Shown piece after piece: positions 2,371 through 20,149 of a stretch of 64,000 nt of DNA. The DNA is taken from positions 68,000 through 131,999 of IMG/VR virus record IMGVR_UViG_3300027509_000013, one strand, 5' to 3'. Below the pieces are notes generated by a model. The model did no database searches, was not told the DNA's origin, and saw only the letters and a list, made by a program, of their open reading frames with translations. Position numbers and translations under genes: made by a program. The DNA comes from a virus. Its lineage: Duplodnaviria; Caudoviricetes. The stretch's first letter is position 1. Each line of letters starts with the position of its first letter.

Positions 2371-3405
2371 TTAGTATGAGAAATTAGGTGTGATATTGAT
2401 ATTGTAGTTGTGTTTAAAGAAAGCCTTAGTAGCTTTTTTGGAAGAGTAGTCTTTATCGGAGCAGACAATGCCATTTTCCATGTAAGAGCAGAATAGGCAT
2501 CCTAGGATCTTTTTATCTTGAATAAAGGTTCCGGCTAGAGGTTGTTCGGAAGCACATTGAGGGCAGAAGCCTTTGATTCTAGTAGGATCTGATATACGAC
2601 CACCTGCGTAGTAGTTTATAGTATCAGGACAGATAACAAAATGGTTTTCATCTGGGATGTTTGATACTTCCGAGAGATCGAGGTTAAAATAGATCATAGA
2701 ATCCCTCATAGGCATAGCAGGGAATAGATATCCTGGTGTTTTGAGTTCATGAGTACACTTTTGATCTTTCTTGTTGATATTTTGTGTGATTTGCTTGAAT
2801 CCATGGTCAAGCATGATTATTTTTAGTCTAGTGGCCATAGCATCGTTGTAGCCGTATATTTTATCGAAATAAATCTGTCTAGAGTCCTTATCTATCCAAG
2901 TAAGGCTTCTGGCAAGTAGCACTTCGCCGCGTTTCACCCTTTTAGAGATACAAGCAGCAGTGATCATCTGTCTATCGTACCAGTTAGCAGAATCTATTTT
3001 AGCCTGACTCTCTACCATGCAAGTCCATAATCCATTTTTATTATGCTGTCTGTATTTGTAGAAGTTTTGAGGTCTAAAGAGATAAGAAGGGCTATTAGTG
3101 TAGAAGTAATCGATATTAGTAAGCGAGCAAGCTTTGATTATGTCCAGAGCCTTGTTAGTAGTAAGAGAAGAGTATTTACCTACTCTGGCGATGAGTTTAC
3201 CCGGCTTTACCTTACGATTATGCTTATCTAGCAGCATAGGAGAGCCAGGAATAGACTTTAGCGGTTGTTTTCGCATAATCTTAGCCAAAGGAGCTGAAAG
3301 TCGCTTCACGGAGCTTAAATCGTGCATTCCAAGGGTCTCTTGGTACTTAGAAATAGGGGAATAGAAGATAGAATCTTGTATAGATCGTCGCTTAAATCGT
3401 TGCAT
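2371..3405 (-). CDS. hypothetical phage protein (possibly PcfJ-like; C-terminal CxxC...CxxC)
   Basis: 344-aa ORF with TCM, ARSLTW and YFDKIY motifs and a Zn-ribbon-like tail. Confidence 0.6.
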   Translation of the reverse strand: MQRFKRRSIQDSIFYSPISKYQETLGMHDLSSVKRLSAPLAKIMRKQPLKSIPGSPMLLDKHNRKVKPGKLIARVGKYSSLTTNKALDIIKACSLTNIDYFYTNSPSYLFRPQNFYKYRQHNKNGLWTCMVESQAKIDSANWYDRQMITAACISKRVKRGEVLLARSLTWIDKDSRQIYFDKIYGYNDAMATRLKIIMLDHGFKQITQNINKKDQKCTHELKTPGYLFPAMPMRDSMIYFNLDLSEVSNIPDENHFVICPDTINYYAGGRISDPTRIKGFCPQCASEQPLAGTFIQDKKILGCLFCSYMENGIVCSDKDYSSKKATKAFFKHNYNINITPNFSY

Positions 3406-3452
3406 AATGTAAAATTAAAGAAATTTATTATGTATTAGTTGAAAAATTGTCT

Positions 3453-3460
3453 TAGATTTG
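3453..3460 (+). promoter_or_regulatory. Bacteroidota-type -7 promoter element for tRNA operon 1
   Basis: TAGATTTG matches TAnnTTTG. Confidence 0.6.
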
Positions 3461-3498
3461 TTTCGAATTAAGAAGTTAGCAATAGACAATACATTAAA

Positions 3499-3567
3499 GT
3501 GAAAACAAAAATTCAACAAAGGCATCCTCGCAACTATCACACTCGTGATGGAGTAGACGCTATTTGA
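3499..3567 (+). CDS. putative attenuator leader peptide 1 (MKTKIQQRHPRNYHTRDGVDAI)
   Basis: GTG...TGA; the codon run CAA CAA AGG CAT CCT CGC matches downstream Pro/His/Arg/Arg/Gln tRNAs. Confidence 0.8.
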   Translation: MKTKIQQRHPRNYHTRDGVDAI

Positions 3568-3595
3568 CCTTTTGTAAAGAACTATTAGTGTAGAT

Positions 3596-3631
3596 GCCCC
3601 TCATGAGTGAAAGCTTATGAGGGGTTTTTTT
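3596..3631 (+). terminator. intrinsic terminator/attenuator before tRNA operon 1
   Basis: GCCCCTCATGAGT-GAAA-GCTTATGAGGGG followed by T7. Confidence 0.85.
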
Positions 3632-3645
3632 ATTTTGATCAATAT

Positions 3646-3721
3646 AGGGATGTAGCTTAGTGGCCAGAGCGCGTATTTTGGGAATACGAAGGCGAGTGTT
3701 CAAATCACTCCATCCCTACCA
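3646..3721 (+). tRNA. tRNA-Pro(TGG)
   Basis: Cloverleaf; anticodon arm CGTAT-TTTGGGA-ATACG; encoded CCA. Confidence 0.95.
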
Positions 3722-3726
3722 ATTAT

Positions 3727-3802
3727 GGTAGCCTTGTGCTGTTTTGCAATGCAGCCGGACTGTGGATCTGGTGCGACGGGTTGGATTCCCGAGGTTTACC
3801 CA
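3727..3802 (+). tRNA. tRNA-His(GTG), atypical D and T loops
   Basis: CCGGA-CTGTGGA-TCTGG; T loop TTGGATT; imperfect acceptor stem; ends CCA. Confidence 0.8.
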
Positions 3803-3807
3803 ATAAT

Positions 3808-3880
3808 AGCCATGTAGCTCAACTGGCAGAGCGCTTCCCTACGAAGGAAGGGGTTGGGAGTTCGACTCTCTCCATGGTTA
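3808..3880 (+). tRNA. tRNA-Arg(ACG)
   Basis: CTTCC-CTACGAA-GGAAG; canonical D and T arms. Confidence 0.95.
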
Positions 3881-3924
3881 CTAAAATTTTAAAAATCGAC
3901 GGCGCTTCGCGCCTAGATACACAT

Positions 3925-4004
3925 GGTCAGGTAGCCACCCTCCTCTTCTAAAGGAGTAAGTGTAATTGGAGCTGAAAATCGGGGTTCGAATCCCTGTCTG
4001 ATCA
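3925..4004 (+). tRNA. tRNA-Arg(TCT), D-armless with long variable region
   Basis: Acceptor GGTCAGG/TCTGATC; CTCCT-CTTCTAA-AGGAG; T arm CGGGG-TTCGAAT-CCCTG; only 8 nt between acceptor and anticodon arms. Confidence 0.8.
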
Positions 4005-4054
4005 CTATTAAATAATAAATTTATTATTGTATATTTGTAAAAAATATATTAATT

Positions 4055-4321
4055 ATGACAGCATCGGAATTGTTAAATAAAGTACTGACTAAAGTATTTG
4101 CACTTCAATCTTTATCTGGTAAAATCAGGATAAAGACTGAAGAAAATAAAATGCAAGAACTAAATCTGTTTATTGTCTACTCTAATCATCCTGTTCAGTA
4201 TAACAATAAAATAAGTATTCTGAATTCTGATGATCATGATCTTGAAGAAATTTGGGAACAATTCAAAGAAGATGTTGATACCAATATAAGAGCAATTGAT
4301 CATATCGTTAATATGCCTTAA
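4055..4321 (+). CDS. hypothetical protein
   Basis: 88-aa ATG ORF with TATATTTG at 4030-4037. Confidence 0.7.
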   Translation: MTASELLNKVLTKVFALQSLSGKIRIKTEENKMQELNLFIVYSNHPVQYNNKISILNSDDHDLEEIWEQFKEDVDTNIRAIDHIVNMP

Positions 4322-4330
4322 ATTACACAA

Positions 4331-4403
4331 TGATGGTTAGCATAACTGGTTAGTGCATCGGGTTTTGGTCCCGAGGGATGGAGTTCGAGTCTCCGACCGT
4401 CAT
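4331..4403 (+). tRNA. tRNA-Gln(TTG)
   Basis: TCGGG-TTTTGGT-CCCGA; T1-A72. Confidence 0.95.
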
Positions 4404-4418
4404 CTAAATTACTGTTTT

Positions 4419-4715
4419 ATGAATGATACAAACATACCTGGTCCTTCCTTTACGGACTTTCTATATGCTGATATACCTACATTTACATCAGGTGAAGGTG
4501 TAGATACTCTTGAATATTTCAAACCTATCATACCAGATCCTGGTCCTAGACAGTTTAATTTATTTGTAGGCACCGAAGGATTCTTTCTTATTAGTGACGG
4601 GTTTAAAGATGAAAGAGATCGATCAGAACGTAAACACTGGCTAGCTCAAAGAATAGCTTACAGGAACCTGATCGATGGTAGAGAATATTACTCACGATTT
4701 AATAGCCCAGTATGA
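4419..4715 (+). CDS. hypothetical protein (start MNDTNIP)
   Basis: ATG just after tRNA-Gln. Confidence 0.6.
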   Translation: MNDTNIPGPSFTDFLYADIPTFTSGEGVDTLEYFKPIIPDPGPRQFNLFVGTEGFFLISDGFKDERDRSERKHWLAQRIAYRNLIDGREYYSRFNSPV

Positions 4716-4997
4716 GAAGATTTATAGGTCAGGAGATAGATGTCGGATCATTCTATACTTTAAGATACAGGTGGGTTTACCTGCCAAATGAGGCCTACAT
4801 CGAAGTTCCGCGGCAAATCCGACCATCAGTGCACTCAAACAAACAAAACATCCTCTACAGCGGCCAAAAACTACTTATCCGATGAATAAATACTACAAAC
4901 AAGCTATTATTGAAAGATATCAAAGCCACAATGGATGCTTATCATGCTTTATATTTATTATCTGGATTTTAGTAATGCTTATTGCATTGATACTTTC

Positions 4998-5252
4998 TTA
5001 CTCATGAAAAAACAAGAAATAAATCCAAGCACCAATAAATAAAAGTACAGGTATAAAACCAAAAATGAAATAACGAAATTTTCTATAGTATATCATTTTC
5101 TTCTCCTTTATTATAAGCTGATCATAATAGTAGTTAATAGCTTTGGGAATAGAACTACTCCAATAACCAAATGATATAGAAGATTCCTCGTAGTGCTCGA
5201 GAGCTCTTTTCCTCAAATCTTCTAGTGGTGTTTGTGCTGCTTGATTATCCAT
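4998..5252 (-). CDS. small membrane protein
   Basis: C-terminal hydrophobic segment. Confidence 0.65.
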   Translation of the reverse strand: MDNQAAQTPLEDLRKRALEHYEESSISFGYWSSSIPKAINYYYDQLIIKEKKMIYYRKFRYFIFGFIPVLLFIGAWIYFLFFHE

Positions 5253-5691
5253 TGTCTAATTTTATTTTAGCATCTATTTCTAAACCAATTATATCATGCA
5301 ACTCTTTCCTCAGATTCTTAGCTGTCTTTTCTGCTTCCAGTATCCCAGATATCAATTTCTTATGTCTTAATTTAGGATCGTGAATCCTTTTATCTCTAGG
5401 CTTGCTAATTGCAACCGAAGCCAAATCAAAACCTAAATTAGCTATTGCAACATTCAAATCATCTAGATATAAATCTCTAGGAAAACCAAATGCATTTCCA
5501 TCAGTTAATTGCTTGAAAATAATCATTTGAGGAACTGGATTGATTTCATGCTGTTCGCAGATTATTTTAGCCTCTTCTAAGCTTTGCTTGCTGTATCCAA
5601 CATAAGTGCCTCCAGTCCTAGAAGCACATTTTAAAAGATGTATGGTTTTACCACTTCTTCTTGATTTATATAGTATTTGTACATTATTCAT
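5245..5691 (-). CDS. small P-loop NTPase-like protein
   Basis: RRSGKT Walker-A-like and LYLDD Walker-B-like motifs. Confidence 0.6.
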   Translation of the reverse strand: MNNVQILYKSRRSGKTIHLLKCASRTGGTYVGYSKQSLEEAKIICEQHEINPVPQMIIFKQLTDGNAFGFPRDLYLDDLNVAIANLGFDLASVAISKPRDKRIHDPKLRHKKLISGILEAEKTAKNLRKELHDIIGLEIDAKIKLDNG

Positions 5692-5872
5692 TTTTTGATT
5701 TTATTTGTTCTTTAAGCCATAAAAAAGCTATTTCTTTTGATTCAAAATCAGAGCTTGCATCTGATACATATACACCAACTCTTTGTTTAGTGCTTTTAGC
5801 TATAAATGATACATAATGCTCTGTTCCATTATGCTCTACCTCTGTTAATTCTATAAATCTATCTAAAGTCAT
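5684..5872 (-). CDS. hypothetical protein
   Basis: 62-aa ORF directly after a TATATTTG motif (5877-5884, minus). Confidence 0.65.
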   Translation of the reverse strand: MTLDRFIELTEVEHNGTEHYVSFIAKSTKQRVGVYVSDASSDFESKEIAFLWLKEQIKSKNE

Positions 5873-5902
5873 AAATCAAATATACAAAAAATTTTTATTT
5901 AG

Positions 5903-5977
5903 TACACCAGGTGGGCTACGATCCCACGATCCCTCGATTAAAAGTCGAGTACTTTAGTCCAACTAAGCTACTGGTGC
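5903..5977 (-). tRNA. tRNA-Lys(TTT)
   Basis: CTCGA-CTTTTAA-TCGAG; T loop ATCGTAG. Confidence 0.92.
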
Positions 5978-5979
5978 AT

Positions 5980-6055
5980 TGGAGAACGTAGACGGGCTCG
6001 AACCGTCGTATCCGGATTTGCAGTCCGGCGCCTATGCCATCTCAGCCATACGTTC
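5980..6055 (-). tRNA. tRNA-Cys(GCA)
   Basis: CCGGA-CTGCAAA-TCCGG; U73; encoded CCA. Confidence 0.95.
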
Positions 6056-6060
6056 ATTAG

Positions 6061-6128
6061 CACAGGATGAATGAGTCGAACACTCTCGTAAGGGTTTGGA
6101 ATCCTTTTAGCTCCACAGCCTATCCTGC
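6061..6128 (-). tRNA. tRNA-Trp(CCA), shortened D arm
   Basis: AAGGA-TTCCAAA-CCCTT; D arm GCT-GTGG-AGC; G73. Confidence 0.85.
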
Positions 6129-6133
6129 ATAAA

Positions 6134-6216
6134 TGATTGATCCTCGGATTCGAACCGACCTCTGCCATTGCCACTCACTTTTCAGCGCGGGAGGAATCGA
6201 ACCTCAAAATCAATCA
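6134..6216 (-). ncRNA. tRNA-like RNA with two T-arm hairpins
   Basis: Closing stem TGATTGAT/ATCAATCA encloses GAGG-TTCGATT-CCTC and TCGG-TTCGAAT-CCGA. Confidence 0.55.
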
Positions 6217-6219
6217 TAG

Positions 6220-6291
6220 CGACAATGGACAGATTCGAACTGCCGTCCTCGGAACTTCACCCCGATGCTAAGCCACCTCAGCTACATTGTC
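6220..6291 (-). tRNA. tRNA-Phe(GAA)
   Basis: TCGGG-GTGAAGT-TCCGA. Confidence 0.92.
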
Positions 6292-6295
6292 AAAT

Positions 6296-6331
6296 AAAAA
6301 AAGCCTCGCAAAATTAATTACGAGGCTTTTT
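6296..6331 (-). terminator. intrinsic terminator/attenuator before tRNA operon 2
   Basis: Minus strand AGCCTCGTAA-loop-TTGCGAGGCT followed by a T-tract. Confidence 0.85.
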
Positions 6332-6353
6332 CATATGATCTAATCACATAGGT

Positions 6354-6413
6354 TTAGCAATCTCGCAATTCATGCAAAGAGAAACAAAACCATTTTTTTG
6401 TAATTAAAATCAT
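6354..6413 (-). CDS. putative attenuator leader peptide 2 (MILITKKWFCFSLHELRDC)
   Basis: ATG...TAA; AAA AAA TGG TTT TGT TTC matches downstream Phe/Trp/Cys/Lys tRNAs. Confidence 0.85.
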   Translation of the reverse strand: MILITKKWFCFSLHELRDC

Positions 6414-6417
6414 AATG

Positions 6418-6437
6418 CAAATATAGTGTTATATTTG
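6418..6437. promoter_or_regulatory. divergent Bacteroidota-type promoters
   Basis: TATATTTG on minus (6418-6425) and on plus (6430-6437). Confidence 0.65.
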
Positions 6438-6449
6438 TTAAAAAATAAC

Positions 6450-6776
6450 ATGATATCAAAACTTTCTTCAGAAGTAATCGATTTCGTAGCTAAAGTAGAA
6501 GCCAAATATCTTGAATACATGCAGGAGAGATTCCCTAATAATCGTATTGAGGAATTTGAAGTAACTGAAAACAAAAAGTACGTTAAGGTTATTCAATCAG
6601 GTGCCTTCTGCTTTATCAATAGAGAAAATGGGGATATCTATATGGCTAAAACATTTAGTTCTCCATCATTAAAAAATCCTCGAGGTAATTTATTCTCTAA
6701 ACAACTGGGAATGGAAGCGATATCTGAAAGATCTGCAGGAGGTAGAATCCATCCCCATATTAGGTATCTAAGATAA
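6450..6776 (+). CDS. conserved-looking small phage protein
   Basis: KKYVKV...FINRENGDIYMA...PRGNL pattern resembles small phage proteins; own promoter motif. Confidence 0.7.
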   Translation: MISKLSSEVIDFVAKVEAKYLEYMQERFPNNRIEEFEVTENKKYVKVIQSGAFCFINRENGDIYMAKTFSSPSLKNPRGNLFSKQLGMEAISERSAGGRIHPHIRYLR

Positions 6777-6780
6777 AAAG

Positions 6781-6851
6781 CGGGCCATCCCGGGCTCGAA
6801 CCGAGGATAACGGAGAGACAGTCCGTCGTATTACCACTATACTAATGGCCC
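6781..6851 (-). tRNA. tRNA-Asp(GTC)
   Basis: ACGGA-CTGTCTC-TCCGT; G73. Confidence 0.92.
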
Positions 6852-6855
6852 ATTG

Positions 6856-6929
6856 AGCCTAAGCAGGGATTCGAACCCCGGACATCTTCATTACAAATGA
6901 AGCGCTCTGACCAGCTGAGCTACTTAGGC
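6856..6929 (-). tRNA. tRNA-Thr(TGT)
   Basis: CTTCA-TTTGTAA-TGAAG. Confidence 0.95.
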
Positions 6930-7366
6930 AAGTTTTTATTTAAATGAGACATTTTACCTCCACATCTTCGGCTACATGTAGGTGTTTTTCCCATTGATAG
7001 TTTATGATTTATATTTTTACAGTCTTTTGAAAATTCATTTTTACAAATTGGACAAATTAAGGTTATCATTGTTTTAGATTTCCCAATATGCTTATTGTGC
7101 TTCACTATATTCTCTTTTCTGGAAAGGATTTGAAGATTTGATATAGAATCATTCATTTTATTTTCATCTATATGATCTACATGCTCTTCTGGCCTTAAAT
7201 ACCTTCTTACATGACAACTCATTATATATCTAGCATATGAAGTCGAAGTTTTTGTCCCATCTCTCCGAACCAATGCGACAACTCTTCTTGGTTCTTTGTT
7301 TGTATTTACATATCCTGCGATGTAATCTTTATAATATGGCCATCTTAATACTATTTTTGTTGACAT
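6920..7366 (-). CDS. HNH homing endonuclease inside the tRNA array
   Basis: HVDHIDENKMNDSISNLQIL HNH motif and C-terminal CPIC...CSRRC; stop overlaps the tRNA-Thr 5' end. Confidence 0.9.
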   Translation of the reverse strand: MSTKIVLRWPYYKDYIAGYVNTNKEPRRVVALVRRDGTKTSTSYARYIMSCHVRRYLRPEEHVDHIDENKMNDSISNLQILSRKENIVKHNKHIGKSKTMITLICPICKNEFSKDCKNINHKLSMGKTPTCSRRCGGKMSHLNKNLPK

Positions 7367-7386
7367 ATAAATTTATTTACTTAATG

Positions 7387-7463
7387 TATCTGCGGAGAGA
7401 CTTGAACTCTCATGTGACCAATTACGCTTTCGACAAGATATAAGCTTGAGGCGATACGCAGAC
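7387..7463 (-). tRNA. tRNA-Ile(TAT), D-armless with long variable region
   Basis: GTCTGCG/CGCAGAT acceptor; CAAG-CTTATAT-CTTG; GAGAG-TTCAAGT-CTCTC. Confidence 0.8.
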
Positions 7464-7475
7464 AATATAACATTG

Positions 7476-7546
7476 TAGTTCTGGCAGGACTTGAACCTGC
7501 GTCCATGGTATGTAACACCACTGCTCGGCCACTGAGCTACAGAACT
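7476..7546 (-). tRNA. tRNA-Val(TAC)
   Basis: GTGGT-GTTACAT-ACCAT. Confidence 0.92.
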
Positions 7547-7619
7547 AGAGCCGCTTTCATTTATAACGCGCCAACGTCACCTTCTAAAAAGGCAGGTCAT
7601 TACAAGCGGGACCTGTTTG

Positions 7620-7693
7620 AGCACGAATTCGGGATCGAACCGAATCTATTCTAGCTTGGAAGGCTAGCGCACCACCATTTATGCGTCTCGTGC
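7620..7693 (-). tRNA. tRNA-Gly(TCC)
   Basis: CTAGC-CTTCCAA-GCTAG; U73. Confidence 0.92.
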
Positions 7694-7797
7694 TTATGTA
7701 CCTCAAGTTGATCTTAAAACTCTTCCTAGCTCCCTAAATGGGAGGGCTACAGAAATTCAAATCAAAATGGCTTGGGCCATCAGGTAATTTCAGTTAG

Positions 7798-7874
7798 TTG
7801 GCACAATAGGATTCGAACCTATGTTTTCAACCGCTATCTTAGTCATGCGTATCAGGCATGCCGATTATGTGCCA
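7798..7874 (-). tRNA. tRNA-Ile(GAT), D-armless with long variable region
   Basis: TGGCACA/TGTGCCA; CATGC-CTGATAC-GCATG; ATAGG-TTCGAAT-CCTAT. Confidence 0.8.
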
Positions 7875-7879
7875 ATATG

Positions 7880-7953
7880 CTGCTTTGCAAGGGATCGAAC
7901 CTTGGACCTACGGATTAACAGTCCGCCGCTCTAACCAACTGAGCTACAAAGCA
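7880..7953 (-). tRNA. tRNA-Asn(GTT)
   Basis: GCGGA-CTGTTAA-TCCGT; G73. Confidence 0.95.
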
Positions 7954-8012
7954 ATGTAAGGGTAATCGTAAGATCTCGACGGCCACTTCGGACACCCTAA
8001 AATCGATTATTG

Positions 8013-8085
8013 TGGAGAAGAAGGGCTTCGAACCCTCAACCTTCTGATTGCAAATCAGATGCACGTCCTCTTGTGCTTCAACCCC
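8013..8085 (-). tRNA. tRNA-Ala(TGC)
   Basis: TCTGA-TTTGCAA-TCAGA; G3-U70 present; two U-U mismatches in the acceptor stem. Confidence 0.9.
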
Positions 8086-8088
8086 AAA

Positions 8089-8162
8089 TGGCGGGAGAGG
8101 GAGTCGAACCCTCGTCTTGGGCTTATGAGACCCAGCTGGAACCACCTCCAGTCTACCCCGCA
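8089..8162 (-). tRNA. tRNA-Met(CAT), initiator-like
   Basis: TGGGT-CTCATAA-GCCCA; 1:72 mismatch and a GCGGGG acceptor as in tRNA-fMet. Confidence 0.85.
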
Positions 8163-8175
8163 ATATATTTTCCAT

Positions 8176-8213
8176 AAAAAAAGGGACCAGAAAATTAATC
8201 CTGATCCCTTTTT
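8176..8213 (-). terminator. intrinsic terminator/attenuator before tRNA operon 3
   Basis: Minus strand AGGGATCAGGA-loop-TTCTGGTCCCT followed by a T-tract. Confidence 0.85.
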
Positions 8214-8234
8214 GTATATTGTATGTTACTTACT

Positions 8235-8315
8235 TCAATACATAAAGAGACCAGGTGACGTATCATCGCCTCCGGCTACTATTGTAATATTGATATTGGT
8301 AATAATTTGTTTCAC
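8235..8315 (-). CDS. putative attenuator leader peptide 3 (MKQIITNINITIVAGGDDTSPGLFMY)
   Basis: GTG...TGA; 16 consecutive I/T/N/V/A/G/D codons match downstream tRNAs; promoter TACATTTG at 8335-8342. Confidence 0.85.
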   Translation of the reverse strand: MKQIITNINITIVAGGDDTSPGLFMY

Positions 8316-8372
8316 TTTACTTTTTATTGAATGACAAATGTACATTAAGTTTTATTACTAAGCAACAATTAA

Positions 8373-8807
8373 TCAATAATATCTTTTTGCTTGTAATGCT
8401 ATATCTATTTTAGCCCAGTTTACATAGTCTCTCCCTGTCGGGTTTTTGATCAATGGGCAACATATAGATGCATCATCGATATAAATGTGACAATAAGCTT
8501 TAGGACTTGTAGTCCATGTGTACTGTGTCGGATTTGTTTGGATCCCAAATAAATGAATTTCTCTGTCCTTAAACCAATTCACTGCTTGAGCTAGATAGTC
8601 TCCTGACTCAGTTATGATCTGAGGATCTTCTGATTCTGGATTGACTATATTTGATCTCATGGTAAATAAAATCAAATTATGTCCATTGGCTACTAACTTT
8701 TTAAGAGTCTTTACTGCTCCTGGAACGTCCGCTCCGACTTTAGGAAATTCATGTATCACACATGTTCCATCAAAATCTACCCCTACGTATCTATTTTCTT
8801 GCATCAT
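8373..8807 (-). CDS. HAD-superfamily phosphatase
   Basis: VDFDGT motif I, FTMR, K and YIDD motif IV. Confidence 0.85.
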   Translation of the reverse strand: MMQENRYVGVDFDGTCVIHEFPKVGADVPGAVKTLKKLVANGHNLILFTMRSNIVNPESEDPQIITESGDYLAQAVNWFKDREIHLFGIQTNPTQYTWTTSPKAYCHIYIDDASICCPLIKNPTGRDYVNWAKIDIALQAKRYY

Positions 8808-9531
8808 TGAATAAGCTATTTATTTTTAAATCATTATATCTCTTCTGTCCATCAGTGAAGTAATCTATATCTTTTTCACAAACTACTAAAGTTAGATTCA
8901 TATTATCGATTACATTAAGTTTATTGACAGCTAGAGCTAAACTCATGCTTCCTCCATGGGTGTCTAAGATCTTCTCTCCTGGCTTTGCATATTCCATTAG
9001 TAGCCATTCGTACAACTTAACTGGCTTTTGAGTAGGGTGTATTCTCTTTTCGTTGAGTTTCTTGTTCCCTTGCTGCTTTAGTGCCTTTACTCTATCTTTT
9101 CCACAGTATACTCCTTGCATCATTCCAGAGAACATGTAGTAAACGATGTCCATTCTGTTGCTAAAGCTTTGGTAGGCGATCTCACATCCATATTGGTCCG
9201 CGCCATTTGCTACTATCTTATCCCAGACTATTCTGCCGCCAACAAGATTAGGATAGTAGTTTGCACCCCAGATTATTTGATTCTTACTTACTCTAAATAA
9301 TTCGTCAAAGTACTCTGGTGGACTTCTCTGATCATCCCAATCTTTATGTTTGTATTTCGCTTGTTTTACTGGTCTATATGTTCCATTTGGTTGTTGAGCC
9401 CGACCTGATTTTGTAGAAGGCTTACTAGCACCTATTCCATATTCAAGATCTGGCATGGCTAAGTCGAAAAAGTTATCTCCGAGATCACGCATGAAATCCA
9501 TGTTGTCAGTATGTAGAAGAAGTATACTCAT
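8791..9531 (-). CDS. DNA amino-methyltransferase (N6A/N4C, beta class)
   Basis: HPTQKPVKLY and ILDTHGGSMS motifs; catalytic motif reads DLEY. Confidence 0.85.
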   Translation of the reverse strand: MSILLLHTDNMDFMRDLGDNFFDLAMPDLEYGIGASKPSTKSGRAQQPNGTYRPVKQAKYKHKDWDDQRSPPEYFDELFRVSKNQIIWGANYYPNLVGGRIVWDKIVANGADQYGCEIAYQSFSNRMDIVYYMFSGMMQGVYCGKDRVKALKQQGNKKLNEKRIHPTQKPVKLYEWLLMEYAKPGEKILDTHGGSMSLALAVNKLNVIDNMNLTLVVCEKDIDYFTDGQKRYNDLKINSLFNDARK

Positions 9532-9797
9532 TACAGCGCAGTACCAAGAAGTTGAGCCCCGGATTCAGAAGTATCCTTAGACATAACATATTGTTTTTCT
9601 CCTTCATCATCCCAAACACGATTAGAACAATCTGAACAGTATGTTTTCCCTTCTTCAGTAATAGACCATTCTCCTGCTTCTAAGATATCATCTTTTATTG
9701 CAGATTTCTCACTTAAAGCTACACATCCACTCCAAAGCTCATAGTTCTCTTTGCAGATATCACAAGATGCACACCACATTTTTACTTCTTCTATCAT
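9531..9797 (-). CDS. small Zn-binding hypothetical protein
   Basis: CDIC...CSDC. Confidence 0.65.
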   Translation of the reverse strand: MIEEVKMWCASCDICKENYELWSGCVALSEKSAIKDDILEAGEWSITEEGKTYCSDCSNRVWDDEGEKQYVMSKDTSESGAQLLGTAL

Positions 9798-9901
9798 AAT
9801 TTTTTTATTTTCGAATAACCATCCGCTATCGGACTCCCTACCGATACCTGCTCCTTGGTGATCACCTTACTTTGGACGAGCTACGGATGATTGTTCTTCT
9901 C

Positions 9902-10336
9902 TTAATTAAATCCTAAATCAACTACTCTAGTACTCGGCGCTATCTCTTTCCAATTTCCTAATAATACTTCTGCAGGAGGCAAATCTAGTAAGCTTGCTAA
10001 ATCTATATAGGTGTCATAACATGAAGTAACATATAAATCTTTGAAATAACCCATTATAGCCATATGGTCCTGCAGAGAGATGTTTCTTAGTCTTAGATTT
10101 AAAGAACTGTCATCAATGGTCGACATTAGAATCCAGTAGTCTCCATGGTAACTATCAGGTTGAATAACTACACTGGTTGACTTTCCTCTATACTCAAATG
10201 TATTTGGATTAGCATTGAGAAGGATCTTATGAGTATGAATGCCGACATCATCAGTATAATAGATCCAATGATTCTTGTATAAATCTGGAATAGGCTGATT
10301 ATGTCTGTATTCCCAATCTTTGATGTACTTAATCAT
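9902..10336 (-). CDS. hypothetical protein
   Basis: 144-aa ORF overlapping the upstream stop. Confidence 0.65.
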   Translation of the reverse strand: MIKYIKDWEYRHNQPIPDLYKNHWIYYTDDVGIHTHKILLNANPNTFEYRGKSTSVVIQPDSYHGDYWILMSTIDDSSLNLRLRNISLQDHMAIMGYFKDLYVTSCYDTYIDLASLLDLPPAEVLLGNWKEIAPSTRVVDLGFN

Positions 10337-10769
10337 TATTAAACCGTTTTAACTCTCCACAATTTTGTGCATATTTAATAACTCCTTCCAATACATCTTT
10401 AGTCATTGATTCAATGTCATCATCAGTCATGTCTACACCCAATATTGGACCTTGAACTTTAACTGAAATACTTTGAATTTGACCTATTTTTACGAATCCA
10501 CATTTGTGAGGACAGTTAAATACAGAAACTATGATGTTTTTGTCTTTACCTTCTAATGGCATTTTTACGTGTAAGTAACGTGGATCATTTGGTAATTGAT
10601 AAGGATTATATTTCTCTTTCAGTGCTTCAAGCACAGCATAATAAGCCTTTTTTCTGCCTGGCATTATGTTTCCTGATAAATCTAAAGATTCCTTTAGAAG
10701 AGTTATCTCCTTATCATTCAAATCATTCATGTTGTCGCATACATCCTTAATTGCTTCTCTTATTTCCAT
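10329..10769 (-). CDS. hypothetical protein (start MEIREAIK)
   Basis: ATG at 10769, downstream of the tRNA-like RNA. Confidence 0.65.
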   Translation of the reverse strand: MEIREAIKDVCDNMNDLNDKEITLLKESLDLSGNIMPGRKKAYYAVLEALKEKYNPYQLPNDPRYLHVKMPLEGKDKNIIVSVFNCPHKCGFVKIGQIQSISVKVQGPILGVDMTDDDIESMTKDVLEGVIKYAQNCGELKRFNND

Positions 10770-10782
10770 TATTGTGTATTTG

Positions 10783-10900
10783 AGGCCAGAGCAGGACTCG
10801 AACCTGCAACACATCTTATATCGCTAGAAAATAAAGGTGTCTTAAAAATAAGAAGGATACTCCTAAAAAGTACTGCGTCTACCAATTCCGCCACCTGGCC
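10783..10900 (-). ncRNA. Leu-type tRNA-like RNA with TTA anticodon-like loop and ~50-nt insertion
   Basis: GGCCAGG-TGGCGGAATTGGTAGACGC...GCAGG-TTCGAGT-CCTGC-TCTGGCC; arm GTACT-TTTTAGG-AGTAT. Confidence 0.7.
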
Positions 10901-10916
10901 TTAGATTTTAAAAATC

Positions 10917-10953
10917 GTCAGGGGACGATCAATATCCTTCAGAGTCCCCTGAC
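10917..10953. other. strong hairpin
   Basis: GTCAGGGGAC...GTCCCCTGAC perfect 10-bp inverted repeat. Confidence 0.6.
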
Positions 10954-10964
10954 TTTATATGGTA

Positions 10965-11195
10965 CTATGCTTTTACAAGTATTTATGCTGACAATATAAA
11001 GAATCGCTCTACCCCTAAGCTACCCGACCTTGATTGTTTTTTAGAGGTCGGGATGGGATTCGAACCCATGACCTATTCCTTTAGTTTACTTGTAGCCTTT
11101 CCCATGTATAATCCTGATGCTAAAGCTATTACCTCAACATTAAATCTAATATCTAGCATTTAATGAATCTGAACGTAATGCTTATGCTTCAGGTA
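10965..11195 (-). ncRNA. circularly permuted tRNA-like RNA (Y-RNA/YrlA-like topology) with a 5' hexamer-repeat tract
   Basis: Order is T arm (ATGGG-TTCGAAT-CCCAT), loop-closed acceptor (CCCGACCT/AGGTCGGG), D arm (TAGCTTAGGGGTAGAGC), with closing stem TACAAGTA/TACTTGTA. Confidence 0.75.
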
Positions 11196-11197
11196 AT

Positions 11198-11989
11198 TTA
11201 CTTTTTATGCAAATATGCAAACAAACTGTCAGCAGTAATGCTTGACTTTACACTTTCTACTTCATTAGCTTCTTTCAAAGCCTGAATAACAGCAACTCTA
11301 AGCTTAGATATTCTTGACAATACCTCTGCTTTTTCTCTTTGAGAAAAAGCTCCAGTAAATATTTGACGAGAACCCTCACCTAATGTAACAGTAGTTGTTT
11401 TTTGAGCAACTTTAGGAGTATAGCTAGCTCCATCAATCTTAGAAATATTTGGATCTTCTAAGATGTAATCGACTTTTTCAGTTGTTTTATTCTCAGTACG
11501 AACTAATGGGTTTTCATAGATGCCTTTTCTTCCTTCATAAGACTCTTCTACAGTAGGATTCCACTCAACAGCATCTGATCTAACTGGTATGCTTGAATAC
11601 ATACTCTTAAATTCAGGTGAGTCAATCAAAGATTTTAATCTAAGTAATTCTAAAGTAGACAAATCCTTCCACTTAATGTCATCAAAAATCAAATCAGCTT
11701 TAGCTGCGCCAGAAGCATTAGTAGCTTCTTGATCAAAAAGACTATCTATATAATCCTTAGAACTTAAAGAAAAGTAATCTAATTTTTCATCAACAGTAGT
11801 AACCACTAATTGATTGCTTCTAAGTTTTGGGTCATCTACAGTTTGATCTTTTGGCTCATAAGTTTTCTTTTCACCAAAAAAAGCACCTTGATTTTTAGTG
11901 AAAAACTTAATGTAATTTTGAAGTGCTCTTTTAAATTCCTGACCAAGAGCATCGGTCTTTGCTAATAATACATTTAATTTTACATTCAT
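11198..11989 (-). CDS. uncharacterised protein directly upstream of the permuted tRNA-like RNA
   Basis: 263-aa ORF with its own TACATTTG motif (12008-12015). Confidence 0.85.
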   Translation of the reverse strand: MNVKLNVLLAKTDALGQEFKRALQNYIKFFTKNQGAFFGEKKTYEPKDQTVDDPKLRSNQLVVTTVDEKLDYFSLSSKDYIDSLFDQEATNASGAAKADLIFDDIKWKDLSTLELLRLKSLIDSPEFKSMYSSIPVRSDAVEWNPTVEESYEGRKGIYENPLVRTENKTTEKVDYILEDPNISKIDGASYTPKVAQKTTTVTLGEGSRQIFTGAFSQREKAEVLSRISKLRVAVIQALKEANEVESVKSSITADSLFAYLHKK

Positions 11990-12061
11990 TATAATTCAAT
12001 TTTGAATCAAATGTAAACAAAATATTTTTTAATTAAGCAATAAATAAATATTTTTTTAAAA

Positions 12062-12094
12062 ATAGCTGACATCGGTATTAACGATATCAGCTAT
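12062..12094 (-). terminator. hairpin after tRNA operon 4
   Basis: ATAGCTGA...TCAGCTAT inverted repeat followed by Ts on the minus strand. Confidence 0.55.
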
Positions 12095-12098
12095 ATAG

Positions 12099-12186
12099 CG
12101 GTAAGTGAGAGGATCGAACTCTCAAGGCCTTTCAGCTCGCCATGTTTCAAATATGGTTCCGTCGCCTGCCATCGGATTGACCTACC
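12099..12186 (-). tRNA. tRNA-Ser(TGA)
   Basis: CCATA-TTTGAAA-CATGG; long variable arm; G73. Confidence 0.9.
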
Positions 12187-12192
12187 ATGTTG

Positions 12193-12281
12193 CAGAAGGA
12201 GAGGGATTCGAACCCTCGCTACCAATTAAAGTAGACCTCAGATTAGCAGTCTGGTACTATTACCAACTCAGTCACCCTTCT
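12193..12281 (-). tRNA. tRNA-Ser(GCT)
   Basis: CAGA-CTGCTAA-TCTG; long variable arm; G73. Confidence 0.92.
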
Positions 12282-12285
12282 ATAG

Positions 12286-12369
12286 TGGGAATAGATGGAG
12301 TCGAACCACCCGAGTCATTATAACAACAGATTTACAGTCTGTCCCGCTACCCCTACGGTATATACTCCC
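12286..12369 (-). tRNA. tRNA-Tyr(GTA)
   Basis: ACAGA-CTGTAAA-TCTGT; variable arm. Confidence 0.95.
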
Positions 12370-12373
12370 ATTG

Positions 12374-12447
12374 TACACACGATCGGACTTGAACCGATAA
12401 TCAACGCATTTTAAGTACGTCGGCGTTGCCATTTAGCCTACGTGTGC
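12374..12447 (-). tRNA. tRNA-Leu(TAA), short variable loop
   Basis: ACGTA-CTTAAAA-TGCGT; 5-nt variable loop. Confidence 0.88.
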
Positions 12448-12453
12448 TAAAAG

Positions 12454-12537
12454 TACCGAAGGTGGGACTCGAACCCACAAAGGTGTCACTTTCTAAAAGT
12501 GTGCAGTATGCCTAATTCCCACTTAACCCACTTCGGC
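12454..12537 (-). tRNA. tRNA-Leu(TAG), enlarged D region and short variable loop
   Basis: CACT-TTTAGAA-AGTG; GTGGG-TTCGAGT-CCCAC. Confidence 0.82.
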
Positions 12538-12541
12538 AAAT

Positions 12542-12580
12542 AAAAAAAGCCCATTGCGATATTTCACGCAATGGGCTTTT
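12542..12580 (-). terminator. intrinsic terminator/attenuator before tRNA operon 4
   Basis: Minus strand AGCCCATTGCG-loop-CGCAATGGGCT followed by a T-tract. Confidence 0.88.
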
Positions 12581-12603
12581 GTAGTTCTTAACTTATTTCT
12601 ACA

Positions 12604-12669
12604 TCAATACCGGTTGCGTTCGTCGTTAGACAAATAGAGCAGACTCGATAATGATGATGTATTTTTCAT
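12604..12669 (-). CDS. putative attenuator leader peptide 4 (MKNTSSLSSLLYLSNDERNRY)
   Basis: ATG...TGA; TCA TCA TTA TCG AGT CTG CTC TAT TTG TCT matches Leu/Leu/Tyr/Ser/Ser tRNAs. Confidence 0.85.
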   Translation of the reverse strand: MKNTSSLSSLLYLSNDERNRY

Positions 12670-12680
12670 TGTATTATTTG

Positions 12681-12752
12681 TAACCCGTGAGATAATCGAA
12701 ATCTCCGCTTCACCTTGAAAAGATGACGTCCTGACCACTAGACCAACGGGCC
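12681..12752 (-). tRNA. tRNA-Glu(TTC)
   Basis: TCATC-TTTTCAA-GGTGA. Confidence 0.92.
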
Positions 12753-12793
12753 TAGGTTCCTCAATTTCTATGTTAATATTGTTTCTCACAGTG

Positions 12794-12801
12794 CAAATGT
12801 A
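12794..12801 (-). promoter_or_regulatory. Bacteroidota-type -7 promoter element for tRNA-Glu and operon 4
   Basis: TACATTTG. Confidence 0.6.
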
Positions 12802-13431
12802 CTATAAAATATTGATTCGTTCCCAATCCCACTCAATTAATTCGTCACTGTTATCTCCTTCGATGTAAATTCCTCTATGTGTAACCTTCTTGGCTTCAAG
12901 CTCAGTGTCATCAAAAATAAACTTGTCTCCTGCTATCAGATCATAGATGTTATAGATGATTCTAGTACCATCCTTCATCTGTTTTCTAGCTGATTTCGCT
13001 TTTTCATCTGCTAATTCATTGCCCGGATTGCCATTATGTGATCTTACCCACTTGACATATAGCTTTTTATCTAGTATTCTGGCTAAGTTGATCATTCGTT
13101 CCCAAAGGTGCCTAGCAAAGACTCTCTCTCCATTGCTTTTCATCCATCGATTGTGCTCCCAGGTGTACATCCACCTAGCGACTCCTAATGCTACATACTT
13201 ATTGTCTGTGTAAATTACTGCCTTTCTAAATGACTTGGTATTCTCTACTAGATACTGCAAACTGGCTAATACTGCTCTGACTTCTAACTCAGCACTGTTG
13301 CCTTCTCCATTTCCAAGATTGATTTTTGGGTCATTTCCATCTTCATAGATTACTGAAGCCCATCCTCCAAGACCACCTTTGCCCAAACCTGAGCCATCGG
13401 TGTAAATTGTTGTGTCATAATTCATTCTCAA
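12802..13431 (-). CDS. rnhA: ribonuclease HI
   Basis: YTDGS, AELE, YTDNKY and WVRSHNGNPGNELAD motifs. Confidence 0.93.
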   Translation of the reverse strand: MRMNYDTTIYTDGSGLGKGGLGGWASVIYEDGNDPKINLGNGEGNSAELEVRAVLASLQYLVENTKSFRKAVIYTDNKYVALGVARWMYTWEHNRWMKSNGERVFARHLWERMINLARILDKKLYVKWVRSHNGNPGNELADEKAKSARKQMKDGTRIIYNIYDLIAGDKFIFDDTELEAKKVTHRGIYIEGDNSDELIEWDWERINIL

Positions 13432-13433
13432 AT

Positions 13434-13679
13434 CTACGAAAAAAATAAATTATTTTTATTAATAGTATCACTTTCTTCGTAGATGAGTTGAATTACTCCT
13501 TTTTTGATGTTTCTGATTTTGACTGAAAATTCGCTGATACTAATTCCTCGAGATGAGCAAAACTCTATCGCAGGATCTTCTACTTTGTGTCGGGGGATGC
13601 TTTGGTTGAAGTAATCAGACAATAGATCAAATTCTTCTGGATATAGTTCTTTTATAATTTTTTCTAAGGTCGTGGACAT
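13434..13679 (-). CDS. hypothetical protein
   Basis: Packed ORF. Confidence 0.65.
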   Translation of the reverse strand: MSTTLEKIIKELYPEEFDLLSDYFNQSIPRHKVEDPAIEFCSSRGISISEFSVKIRNIKKGVIQLIYEESDTINKNNLFFS

Positions 13680-13680
13680 T

Positions 13681-14046
13681 TTAGTAGAAGTCTCCGTTCA
13701 TTAATCTTCTTGGTGACCAGTGACTTAATCCCATTACTGTTAATGGCCTAATGATCCTTGATAGTCTGGCTATCAAAAAGTCTTCGTCTACATGAGTTTC
13801 TGCTTCTTTTCTATGCCATTCTTTGACTGTCACTCCTTTTGGAAATGGAGTGAGGTTTTTCATTTGATCAGTAACTAAAGGTGGCCATTCAGCGTAAGAC
13901 TTGACTTTAGCGGCACCAAAATACTTGTAGATTGGCTTTAGTTCTTCTGCGTTTTCTAATTCCCAGGCTTGAACAGCTTCCATAGCTGATGTTGTCAAGT
14001 AGCTATTGTTGTTTGTACAGAATGAGTAATATTTAACTTCTAACAT
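13681..14046 (-). CDS. hypothetical protein
   Basis: Packed ORF. Confidence 0.7.
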   Translation of the reverse strand: MLEVKYYSFCTNNNSYLTTSAMEAVQAWELENAEELKPIYKYFGAAKVKSYAEWPPLVTDQMKNLTPFPKGVTVKEWHRKEAETHVDEDFLIARLSRIIRPLTVMGLSHWSPRRLMNGDFY

Positions 14047-19440: not shown

Positions 19441-19890
19441 ATGAGCAATTTTAATCGAGAAGTATTTAACAAGATTAGAGAAACAATTCCTCAGTATTTA
19501 GAGGTTGAAACAGAAGCAGGAGTTGACAAAGAAACAACTATTCGAATTCCATTTGATGTTGGTCAGCAAATCCAAACTGCCGTATTTCTTTGTGGATGCA
19601 CAGATGTAAGGTTTGAAGCTGCATTTGAGAACCCAGACAAGCCAAGGGAATGTACTGGATATTTACTCAAGTTTGTTTATAAGCCAAAGAAAGTTCAAGA
19701 TTGGGGGCAAGCTAAAAATACTCATCTAGGACAAGTTGTAGAAGCCTACATTCTTGGTGATGATGGACAACCTGCTAATCGAAACATAGGAAAAGGTGTG
19801 ACTGTTTCAATCGTAAACACAGTAAAAGCTCGTTATAACTTTAAGCTGTTAGCGATTACGTCAAACCCAGCACTATTGAATGAGACTTAG
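19441..19890 (+). CDS. hypothetical protein
   Basis: 149-aa ORF containing CGCT. Confidence 0.7.
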   Translation: MSNFNREVFNKIRETIPQYLEVETEAGVDKETTIRIPFDVGQQIQTAVFLCGCTDVRFEAAFENPDKPRECTGYLLKFVYKPKKVQDWGQAKNTHLGQVVEAYILGDDGQPANRNIGKGVTVSIVNTVKARYNFKLLAITSNPALLNET

Positions 19891-20149
19891 AACATTATCA
19901 GGAAAAGAAGTATTACACTGTTTTAGAGATTGCAAGGTGATGGATATCCAGAAGCCACCTTGCAATCTTTGTGTTTCAAAGATGGAGAAGTCACTTAGTA
20001 AAAGGAATATCTCTATAACCGAGACAAAACACGTCTTAGAACCACAAGAAGAGAGGATGAATATGACATTTGATCAACTCTGGTGGGCCAATGGTCCAAC
20101 ACCTTGCAGAATACCAGGTTATAAGCCCGTATTAAAAAGGCAAGAATAA
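19880..20149 (+). CDS. hypothetical protein
   Basis: 89-aa ORF. Confidence 0.6.
   Translation: MRLRTLSGKEVLHCFRDCKVMDIQKPPCNLCVSKMEKSLSKRNISITETKHVLEPQEERMNMTFDQLWWANGPTPCRIPGYKPVLKRQE

Follow-up and report, generated by a model that had tools for sequence, protein, structure and literature searches.

The window analysed, a 64,000-nucleotide stretch (positions 68,000 to 131,999) of the 131,999-bp IMG/VR virus record IMGVR_UViG_3300027509_000013, contains on its minus strand a short leader ORF, an intrinsic terminator-like hairpin and a group of nine tRNA genes in immediate succession. We refer to this arrangement as module C, and its features are as follows.

8335..8342, minus strand: promoter-like TACATTTG, matching TAnnTTTG and overlapping the ATG at 8345, such that transcription may start after that ATG.
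8235..8345, minus strand: leader ORF of 36 codons plus stop, with an alternative in-frame start GTG at 8315..8313.
8259..8306, minus strand: regulatory run IITNINITIVAGGDDT (16 codons).
8244..8255, minus strand: antiterminator 5' strand CCTGGTCTCTTT (codons Pro-Gly-Leu-Phe).
8176..8213, minus strand: predicted intrinsic terminator, stem 8213..8199 with 8192..8178, loop 8198..8193, T7 at 8182..8176.
6780..8163, minus strand: operon of tRNA CAU (initiator-like), Ala, Asn, Ile(GAU), Gly, Val, Ile(UAU), an HNH endonuclease ORF (7366..6920; Pfam HNH_3), Thr and Asp.

The leader ORF translates to MYICHSIKSKVKQIITNINITIVAGGDDTSPGLFMY*. Its run of 16 consecutive codons, ATT ATT ACC AAT ATC AAT ATT ACA ATA GTA GCC GGA GGC GAT GAT ACG, encodes only Ile, Thr, Asn, Val, Ala, Gly and Asp, the amino acids of the downstream tRNAs apart from the CAU tRNA, and includes ATT, ATC and ATA. 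In all six frames of the 132-kb genome this is the second-longest run of that 8-amino-acid set, and the expected number in 260 nt is about 6e-6 (-log10 E = 5.21). The run is followed by a 15-bp stem with a 6-nt loop (-19 to -21 kcal/mol) and seven T, and the first tRNA starts at 8163. The original prediction had described these sixteen codons and a 12-bp pairing between 8244-8255 and 8200-8211 ahead of a nine-tRNA operon, and the observation was confirmed. The segment CCTGGTCTCTTT (8255..8244) pairs with AAAGGGATCAGG (8211..8200) over 12 bp, two of them G-U by our reading of the two strands, with a duplex energy of -17.8 kcal/mol. Dinucleotide shuffles of the same region averaged -6.2 (sd 1.7) and 0 of 1000 reached the observed value.

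Of the nine tRNAs, CAU, Ala, Asn, Gly, Val, Thr and Asp were found by ARAGORN at default settings. Infernal added a tRNA at 7874..7798 (39.7 bits) whose aligned anticodon is GAU, and which lacks a D arm and carries an 18-nt insert in the variable region. The Ile(UAU) tRNA at 7480..7386 was called only by ARAGORN at a relaxed threshold; by our reading it has the same odd build, but Infernal did not report it on that strand, making it the weakest of the nine. The CAU tRNA has three G-C pairs at the base of its anticodon stem and a mismatch at the top of the acceptor stem, which we read as initiator-like.

Module C is not a single case. All tRNA genes of the virus record lie in the window, cover all 20 amino acids when relaxed calls are included, and form four clusters, each preceded by the same build. 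The features of the other three modules are as follows.

12794..12801, minus strand: module A promoter-like TACATTTG, upstream of tRNA-Glu (12752..12680).
12604..12669, minus strand: module A leader ORF MKNTSSLSSLLYLSNDERNRY*, with the run SSLSSLLYLS at 12657..12628.
12538..12580, minus strand: module A terminator, 14-bp stem, -22.4 kcal/mol, hairpin 12580..12545 plus T7, ending 4 nt before the first tRNA.
12098..12537, minus strand: module A operon, an 85-nt tRNA whose anticodon we read as UAG (Leu), then Leu(UAA), Tyr(GUA), Ser(GCU) and Ser(UGA).
6418..6425, minus strand: module B promoter-like TATATTTG, 4 nt before the ATG, so the mRNA may be leaderless.
6354..6413, minus strand: module B leader ORF MILITKKWFCFSLHELRDC*, with the run KKWFCF at 6398..6381.
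6292..6332, minus strand: module B terminator, 15-bp stem, -20.3 kcal/mol, hairpin 6332..6297 plus T7, 4 nt before tRNA-Phe.
5902..6291, minus strand: module B operon, tRNA Phe, Trp, Cys and Lys.
3453..3460, plus strand: module D promoter-like TAGATTTG, 38 nt before the GTG start.
3499..3567, plus strand: module D leader ORF (GTG start) VKTKIQQRHPRNYHTRDGVDAI*, with the run QQRHPR at 3514..3531.
3596..3631, plus strand: module D terminator, 13-bp stem, -21.8 kcal/mol, hairpin 3596..3625 plus T7.
3646..4404, plus strand: module D operon, tRNA Pro, His(GUG), Arg(ACG), Arg(UCU), an 88-aa ORF (4055..4321) and Gln; His and Arg(UCU) were called only at the relaxed ARAGORN threshold.

To determine whether the match between leader and cluster could arise by chance, each leader was scored against each tRNA set. 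Each leader's longest run belonged to its own set; the diagonal of the 4x4 matrix summed to -log10 E = 14.0, compared to 8.27 for the best of the other 23 permutations. None of 20000 random partitions of the amino acids into sets of the same sizes reached the observed value, the highest being 7.74. In six frames of the whole genome, run A was the longest for its set, run B was one of four of length 6 behind a single run of 7, and run D was among the eight longest listed. By standard wobble rules every tRNA of clusters A, B and D has at least one codon of its own in the run, although this is inference, and some run codons (ACC, GCC, GGC, CTC) would need four-way wobble by the phage's U34 tRNAs, which was not examined. 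The tRNA-Glu, the UUA tRNA and an initiator-like tRNA cannot be sensed in this way. As controls, 27 tRNA clusters from six other phage loci (Cronobacter, Acinetobacter and Klebsiella phages, Lak-A1 and two crAss-like gut contigs) showed no comparable run, with a lowest E of 0.07, and only 2 of the 27 had a terminator-like hairpin upstream.

A scan of both strands of the whole genome found only 8 single hairpins of -10 kcal/mol or better followed by at least six T. Four of these are the hairpins in front of the tRNA clusters, with -18 to -22 kcal/mol and exactly seven T, and they end 4 to 14 nt before the first tRNA, leaving no room for a promoter in between. Module B has no co-directional gene upstream, as a plus-strand gene (6450..6776) lies there, and module D lies between divergent genes; these two hairpins therefore cannot be explained as terminators of an upstream gene.

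In each module a segment in the 3' part of the ORF, just after the run, is a partial copy of the terminator's 3' arm and pairs with the 5' arm. The duplex energy was -9.5 kcal/mol for A, -9.8 for B, -17.8 for C and -14.0 for D, reached by 16, 14, 0 and 1 of 1000 dinucleotide shuffles, respectively. To assess how a ribosome would affect this pairing, each leader was folded as it exists when the polymerase has made the 5' arm and loop, with a ribosome masked at every codon in turn using an assumed footprint of -15 to +12 nt from the A site. While the A site was inside the run, 6-13 of the 13-15 arm bases were held by the antiterminator (10-13 except at the last two run codons of C, where a stall partly masks the antiterminator). 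The pairing was lost 1-3 codons after the run ends in all four modules: A at codon 15, B at 13-14, C at 28-30 and D at 12-14. In C, the antiterminator paired while the A site was at codon 27 or earlier, was partly lost at codons 28-29 and was gone by codon 30. Without a ribosome, A left the arm fully free (0 of 14 bases paired) and B left it largely free (5 of 15 paired), so termination is the predicted default there, whereas C and D preferred the antiterminator, so termination there would need translation to the stop codon. In the full-length minimum-energy folds the terminator always formed, and relief must therefore be kinetic, as in classical attenuators.

The motif TAnnTTTG is the Bacteroidota -7 element. 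It lies 4-53 nt before the start codon in 9 of the 10 modules found in this study (six in other phages, below), while in module A it lies before tRNA-Glu, which would then be co-transcribed ahead of the leader. The motif is only mildly enriched in the window, 93 sites against 72.6 expected (sd 8.2), so its occurrence does not settle whether a promoter heads each leader transcript. Start codons are likewise uncertain: GTG in D, perhaps GTG in C, where GTG 8315 has a GTG-AAA context like that of module D, and perhaps a leaderless start in B. The choice of start in C does not affect the run or the helices. No Shine-Dalgarno sequence was visible in the leaders or nearby genes that we read, although by our reading the phage's ordinary genes lack one too.

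The TerL and portal of this virus match phage families. The nearest named TerL is that of the Crassvirales member Cellulophaga phage phi14:2, at 26% identity, and all 49 matching records are Flavobacterium, Cellulophaga or Azobacteroides phages, crAss-like phages, or unclassified uncultured/'Bacteriophage sp.' records. The one DNA sequencing run containing the stretch is labelled marine metagenome. A TerL search gave no close match in IMG/VR, the nearest TerL among 5.8 billion proteins was 40% identical on a contig that was not examined, and a profile search gave 24 IMG/VR loci at 34% identity or less. With no close relative available, there is no nucleotide covariation for module C's own helices. 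Relatives of the 144-aa upstream gene gave 46 IMG/VR loci at 43-60% identity; of the 15 scanned, 13 had no tRNA and none had a cluster downstream, so they were not informative. Of 5 distant crAss-like records, 3 have tRNAs, and their 17 tRNA clusters showed no terminator and no cognate run. Cellulophaga phage phi14:2 and Flavobacterium phage FpV4 had no tRNA match, and of three IMG/VR fragments one had a single tRNA. A DNA search of 50,697 phage records found only generic tRNA hits and two neighbouring genes.

Searching IMG/VR for the anticodon arm of the odd tRNA-Ile, with a long gap before the T arm, did find tRNA arrays in other phages, and six further modules (promoter-like motif, short ORF, hairpin with T6-T10, tRNA array) were identified in four other lineages. 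Lineage 2 (four near-identical contigs, GC 31%, of which the 89.9-kb contig is estimated to be 25% complete) has TATATTTG, then the leader ORF MQAISIIHIMSSINWRRNSSVVSGMSILNSGNWFG*, then a hairpin with T10 and, after a further 13 nt, tRNAs His, His, Trp, Trp, Ser, Ile, Leu, Met, Asn, Asn, Ser, Arg, Ile and Val. The 17-residue run of this module (P2) is the longest in six frames of 19.9 kb, E 1.4e-4. In the same lineage, tRNAs downstream of protein genes (Arg CCU, Arg ACG) have no leader or terminator. Lineage 3 (a complete 373-kb genome and its relatives) has two modules, P3-1 and P3-2. The first run, FFGNIAINFMPQGNNPFVQVGIAKWYNGQY, precedes Phe Lys Pro Pro Ala Trp Gln Ile Asn Asn Gly Gly Met Val Tyr Tyr, and the second, TLSSLHLDTTSTSCELSLC, precedes Ser Ser Thr Cys His Leu Leu Ser Met Met Asp Ser Glu. 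For this pair the own-set score was 12.33 compared to -0.61 when swapped, and 2 of 20000 random partitions reached it.

Lineage 4 (a 55-kb contig) also has two modules, P4-1 and P4-2; their leaders are more mixed, and the contig ends inside the second array. Lineage 5 (L105) has a leader homologous to that of P4-1, preceding Ala Ile Phe Lys Glu Asp Trp Arg Cys His Met. Its terminator stem differs from that of its homologue at four pairs, by our reading two double changes and two wobble changes, and pairing is kept through the two double changes. However, the duplex test was not significant in L105 (725 of 1000 shuffles reached it), and copies within lineages were identical (0 mismatches in 9 comparisons), giving no covariation. 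In all six modules the masked-ribosome folds released the terminator arm partway through the leader. Where a run was defined (A-D, P2, P3-1 and P3-2) the release point fell 0-3 codons from the end of the run; in P4-1, P4-2 and L105, where none was defined, it fell at codons 22-29. The result was less clean in lineage 2, where the antiterminator can re-form behind a ribosome late in the ORF.

The original prediction had read this locus as an attenuator, and that interpretation is supported by our analysis and extended to the other clusters. We consider it likely that module C is one of four ribosome-mediated (leader-peptide) transcription attenuators, one in front of each tRNA operon of a 132-kb marine Crassvirales-like phage. 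In this view, a promoter drives a short leader transcript and a ribosome translates a 19-36-codon ORF whose central run is made only of codons read by the tRNAs encoded downstream. If those codons are decoded slowly because cognate aminoacyl-tRNA is scarce, the ribosome would stall inside the run, leaving the segment in the 3' part of the ORF free to pair with the 5' arm of the terminator, and RNA polymerase would read through into the tRNA genes. If decoding is fast, the ribosome would run on to the stop codon and cover or melt the antiterminator segment, the hairpin plus U7 would form, and transcription would stop a few bases before the first tRNA. The sequence architecture, its statistics, the alternative pairings and the recurrence in other phages were demonstrated here, whereas translation of the ORFs, use of the motifs as promoters, termination at the hairpins and its relief by stalling are inferred; no transcript, ribosome or read-through data exist and no RNA sequencing run contains this DNA, so the response to limiting cognate aminoacyl-tRNA was not measured. 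The result would be a negative feedback loop on tRNA supply, set separately for each group of tRNAs. The sensor would respond to charged tRNA, so amino-acid starvation would also induce it; whether the biological trigger is codon-usage mismatch, loss of host tRNA during infection or a host tRNA-cleaving defence is open.

Other explanations were considered and appear less likely. The hairpins might simply end upstream transcription units, with the tRNAs made by leaky read-through and the matching short ORFs a coincidence picked out after the fact; in module C the hairpin does follow a co-directional gene (8807..8373) and could serve as its terminator, and short ORFs are everywhere in AT-rich DNA, with 179 ORFs of 20 aa or more overlapping the first 14 kb. 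This is very unlikely given the random partitions, the genome-wide ranks of runs A and C, the gene orientations at modules B and D, the recurrence in four other lineages with leader composition following tRNA content, and the absence of such runs from the control clusters (0 of 27 at E below 0.05). It is also very unlikely that the ORFs encode functional micro-peptides whose mRNAs are terminated by the hairpins. The ORFs have start and stop codons and promoter-like motifs upstream, but the ten peptides, 19-42 residues long with no recognisable motif, share no sequence except between the two homologous leaders, and what they share is composition that tracks the downstream tRNAs.

A somewhat stronger, though still unlikely, alternative is that the leader does sense decoding speed but acts on RNA processing or stability (for example exposure of RNase sites or RNase P access) or on factor-dependent termination. 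The full-length folds always favour the terminator, the hairpin lies so close to the tRNA 5' end that it would be part of every tRNA precursor leader, and the antiterminators of A and B are modest. However, a hairpin plus T7 is the canonical intrinsic terminator, the duplexes are better than shuffles in 4 of 4 modules of this phage, and their release point coincides with the end of the codon run, which the termination switch predicts and a processing model does not require. Direct, T-box-like binding of tRNA anticodons to the run without a ribosome is very unlikely. The regulated and sensed molecules are both tRNAs, and the runs display many codons in a region predicted to be unpaired in some folds, but no T-box or other tRNA-binding RNA family matched in 3000..14000 at E up to 1 or in 7370..8170 at E up to 10, the runs are in frame with start and stop codons in 10 of 10 modules, and no conserved structure frames the codons.

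The layout resembles the leader-peptide attenuators of amino-acid biosynthetic operons (trpL, hisL, leuL, pheL and the multivalent thrL and ilvL; PMC1183508), with a short ORF carrying regulatory codons, an intrinsic terminator before the regulated genes and a mutually exclusive antiterminator whose fate depends on where the ribosome stands; several amino acids are sensed by one leader, as in thr and ilv. Here, however, the genes downstream are tRNAs rather than amino-acid biosynthesis or transport genes, the run is a mixed 'barcode' of 3 to 12 different amino acids rather than repeats of one to three, the element is viral, there is no Shine-Dalgarno context, the promoter-like motif is Bacteroidota-type, and the loop closes on tRNA supply rather than on amino-acid synthesis. 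T-box riboswitches also sense tRNA status and decide between terminator and antiterminator upstream of translation-related genes, but they bind uncharged tRNA directly through a specifier loop and the T-box sequence, need no ribosome, and control aminoacyl-tRNA synthetase and amino-acid genes. Module B gave weak matches over 6294..6406 to Rfam Phe_leader (RF01859; 28.5 bits, E 0.22) and His_leader (RF00514; 26.2 bits, E 0.73), reflecting the same layout of ORF, hairpin and U-run, but these are below the gathering scores of 55 and 49 and it is not a member; modules A, C and D gave no match. Leaderless poly-Cys short ORF attenuators of mycobacteria (bioRxiv 10.1101/834739) have a short ORF at or near the 5' end of the transcript whose codon run senses supply and tunes downstream genes, and module B may be leaderless as well, but those control cysteine metabolism genes in a bacterium and sense one amino acid. 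Literature searches, which covered abstracts but not subscription-journal papers or supplements, found no description of attenuation of tRNA genes, and a survey of premature terminators (PMC2965389) did not mention tRNA genes, Bacteroidetes or phage.

A further reading, which is possible but tentative, is that these elements form a family of virus-encoded tRNA homeostats that sense the decoding capacity of the infected cell codon group by codon group, through a mixed-codon 'barcode' leader, and switch on the phage's own tRNA operons only when the host pool fails. That failure could follow host tRNA degradation or cleavage by anticodon-nuclease defences, which would make the phage tRNA set an inducible counter-defence. 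They would then be the first natural case of tRNA genes controlled by ribosome-mediated attenuation, and they appear widespread in marine phages with Bacteroidota-type promoter-like motifs, including 340-370-kb jumbo phages.

How phages regulate their tRNA genes is largely unknown, and why they carry them is debated (codon-usage matching, replacement of a degraded host pool, or escape from tRNA-cleaving defences). An attenuator whose sensor codons are exactly the codons read by the genes it controls would show that the phage measures decoding capacity and supplies tRNA on demand, and would extend leader-peptide attenuation from amino-acid enzymes to the tRNAs themselves. It would also give a simple, directly testable system of about 150 nt per module and provide natural multi-codon sensors of tRNA availability. 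Leader composition could also be used to predict operon boundaries and the identity of odd tRNAs in uncultured phages.

The tRNA-Ile genes of cluster C, one of this phage's four tRNA clusters (A to D), were unusual in structure. tRNA-Ile(GAU), and apparently Ile(UAU), lack a D arm and carry an 18-22-nt insert in the variable region that looks like a displaced D arm. The same odd tRNA-Ile is kept in at least five phage lineages, and it was through this tRNA that the other lineages were found. These genes lie at the following positions, where L numbers denote loci from other phages:
window 7798-7874, minus strand, tRNA-Ile(GAU)
window 7386-7480, minus strand, apparent tRNA-Ile(UAU)
L082 11632-11708, the odd tRNA-Ile
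L093 8432-8526, the odd tRNA-Ile
L094 about 2650-2730, the odd tRNA-Ile
L105 4421-4512, the odd tRNA-Ile

Other tRNA-like features and hairpins were observed in the window and in the other phages. A tRNA with anticodon UUA (window 10782-10900, minus strand), called as 'Stop' with a 39-nt insert by ARAGORN and scoring 42.5 bits as an Rfam tRNA, is preceded by another hairpin followed by T5 (10910-10952, minus strand). No cognate leader was recognized for this tRNA. The late genes read as long ORFs in the standard code, so its role is unclear. Just upstream of the UUA tRNA (window 10985-11105, minus strand) lies a weak match to the Y RNA-like family YrlA (34 bits against a gathering score of 69, E 2e-4), which contains a tRNA-like T arm. 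In three near-identical contigs, the same tRNA (L082 689-761, L083 405-477 and L084 1445-1517) was called His(atg) in two and Pyl(cta) in one by ARAGORN, which may indicate an amber-suppressor-like tRNA with a variable or ambiguous anticodon loop; a terminator-like hairpin follows it. In Prevotella phage Lak-A1 (L080, about 19650-19900 of the locus, minus strand), a -18.9 kcal/mol hairpin with a T-run, not examined further, ends 19 nt before a two-tRNA cluster (Ile, Trp), and the longest cognate run upstream is only 'II'.

The 144-aa gene upstream of the cluster C leader (window 8373-8807, minus strand) matches PHROG 1238 ('phosphoheptose isomerase', E 2e-25). Homologues of this gene, 43-60% identical, are present in 46 IMG/VR contigs of 15.6-141 kb, and the 15 of these loci that were scanned lack the tRNA context.

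When the tRNAs called at the relaxed threshold are included, the phage encodes tRNAs for all 20 amino acids within window 3646-12752, and the clusters are sorted by codon first letter. Cluster D holds C-first codons (Pro, His, Gln, Arg), cluster B holds U-first codons (Phe, Cys, Trp) plus Lys, cluster C holds A-first and G-first codons, and cluster A holds the long-arm tRNAs (Leu, Ser, Tyr), whereas tRNA-Glu stands alone ahead of leader A. An HNH endonuclease gene (window 6920-7366, minus strand; Pfam HNH_3, 26.8 bits) is inserted inside tRNA operon C, and an 88-aa ORF (4055-4321) likewise splits operon D before tRNA-Gln. Despite these insertions, both leaders still carry codons for the tRNAs beyond the inserts.
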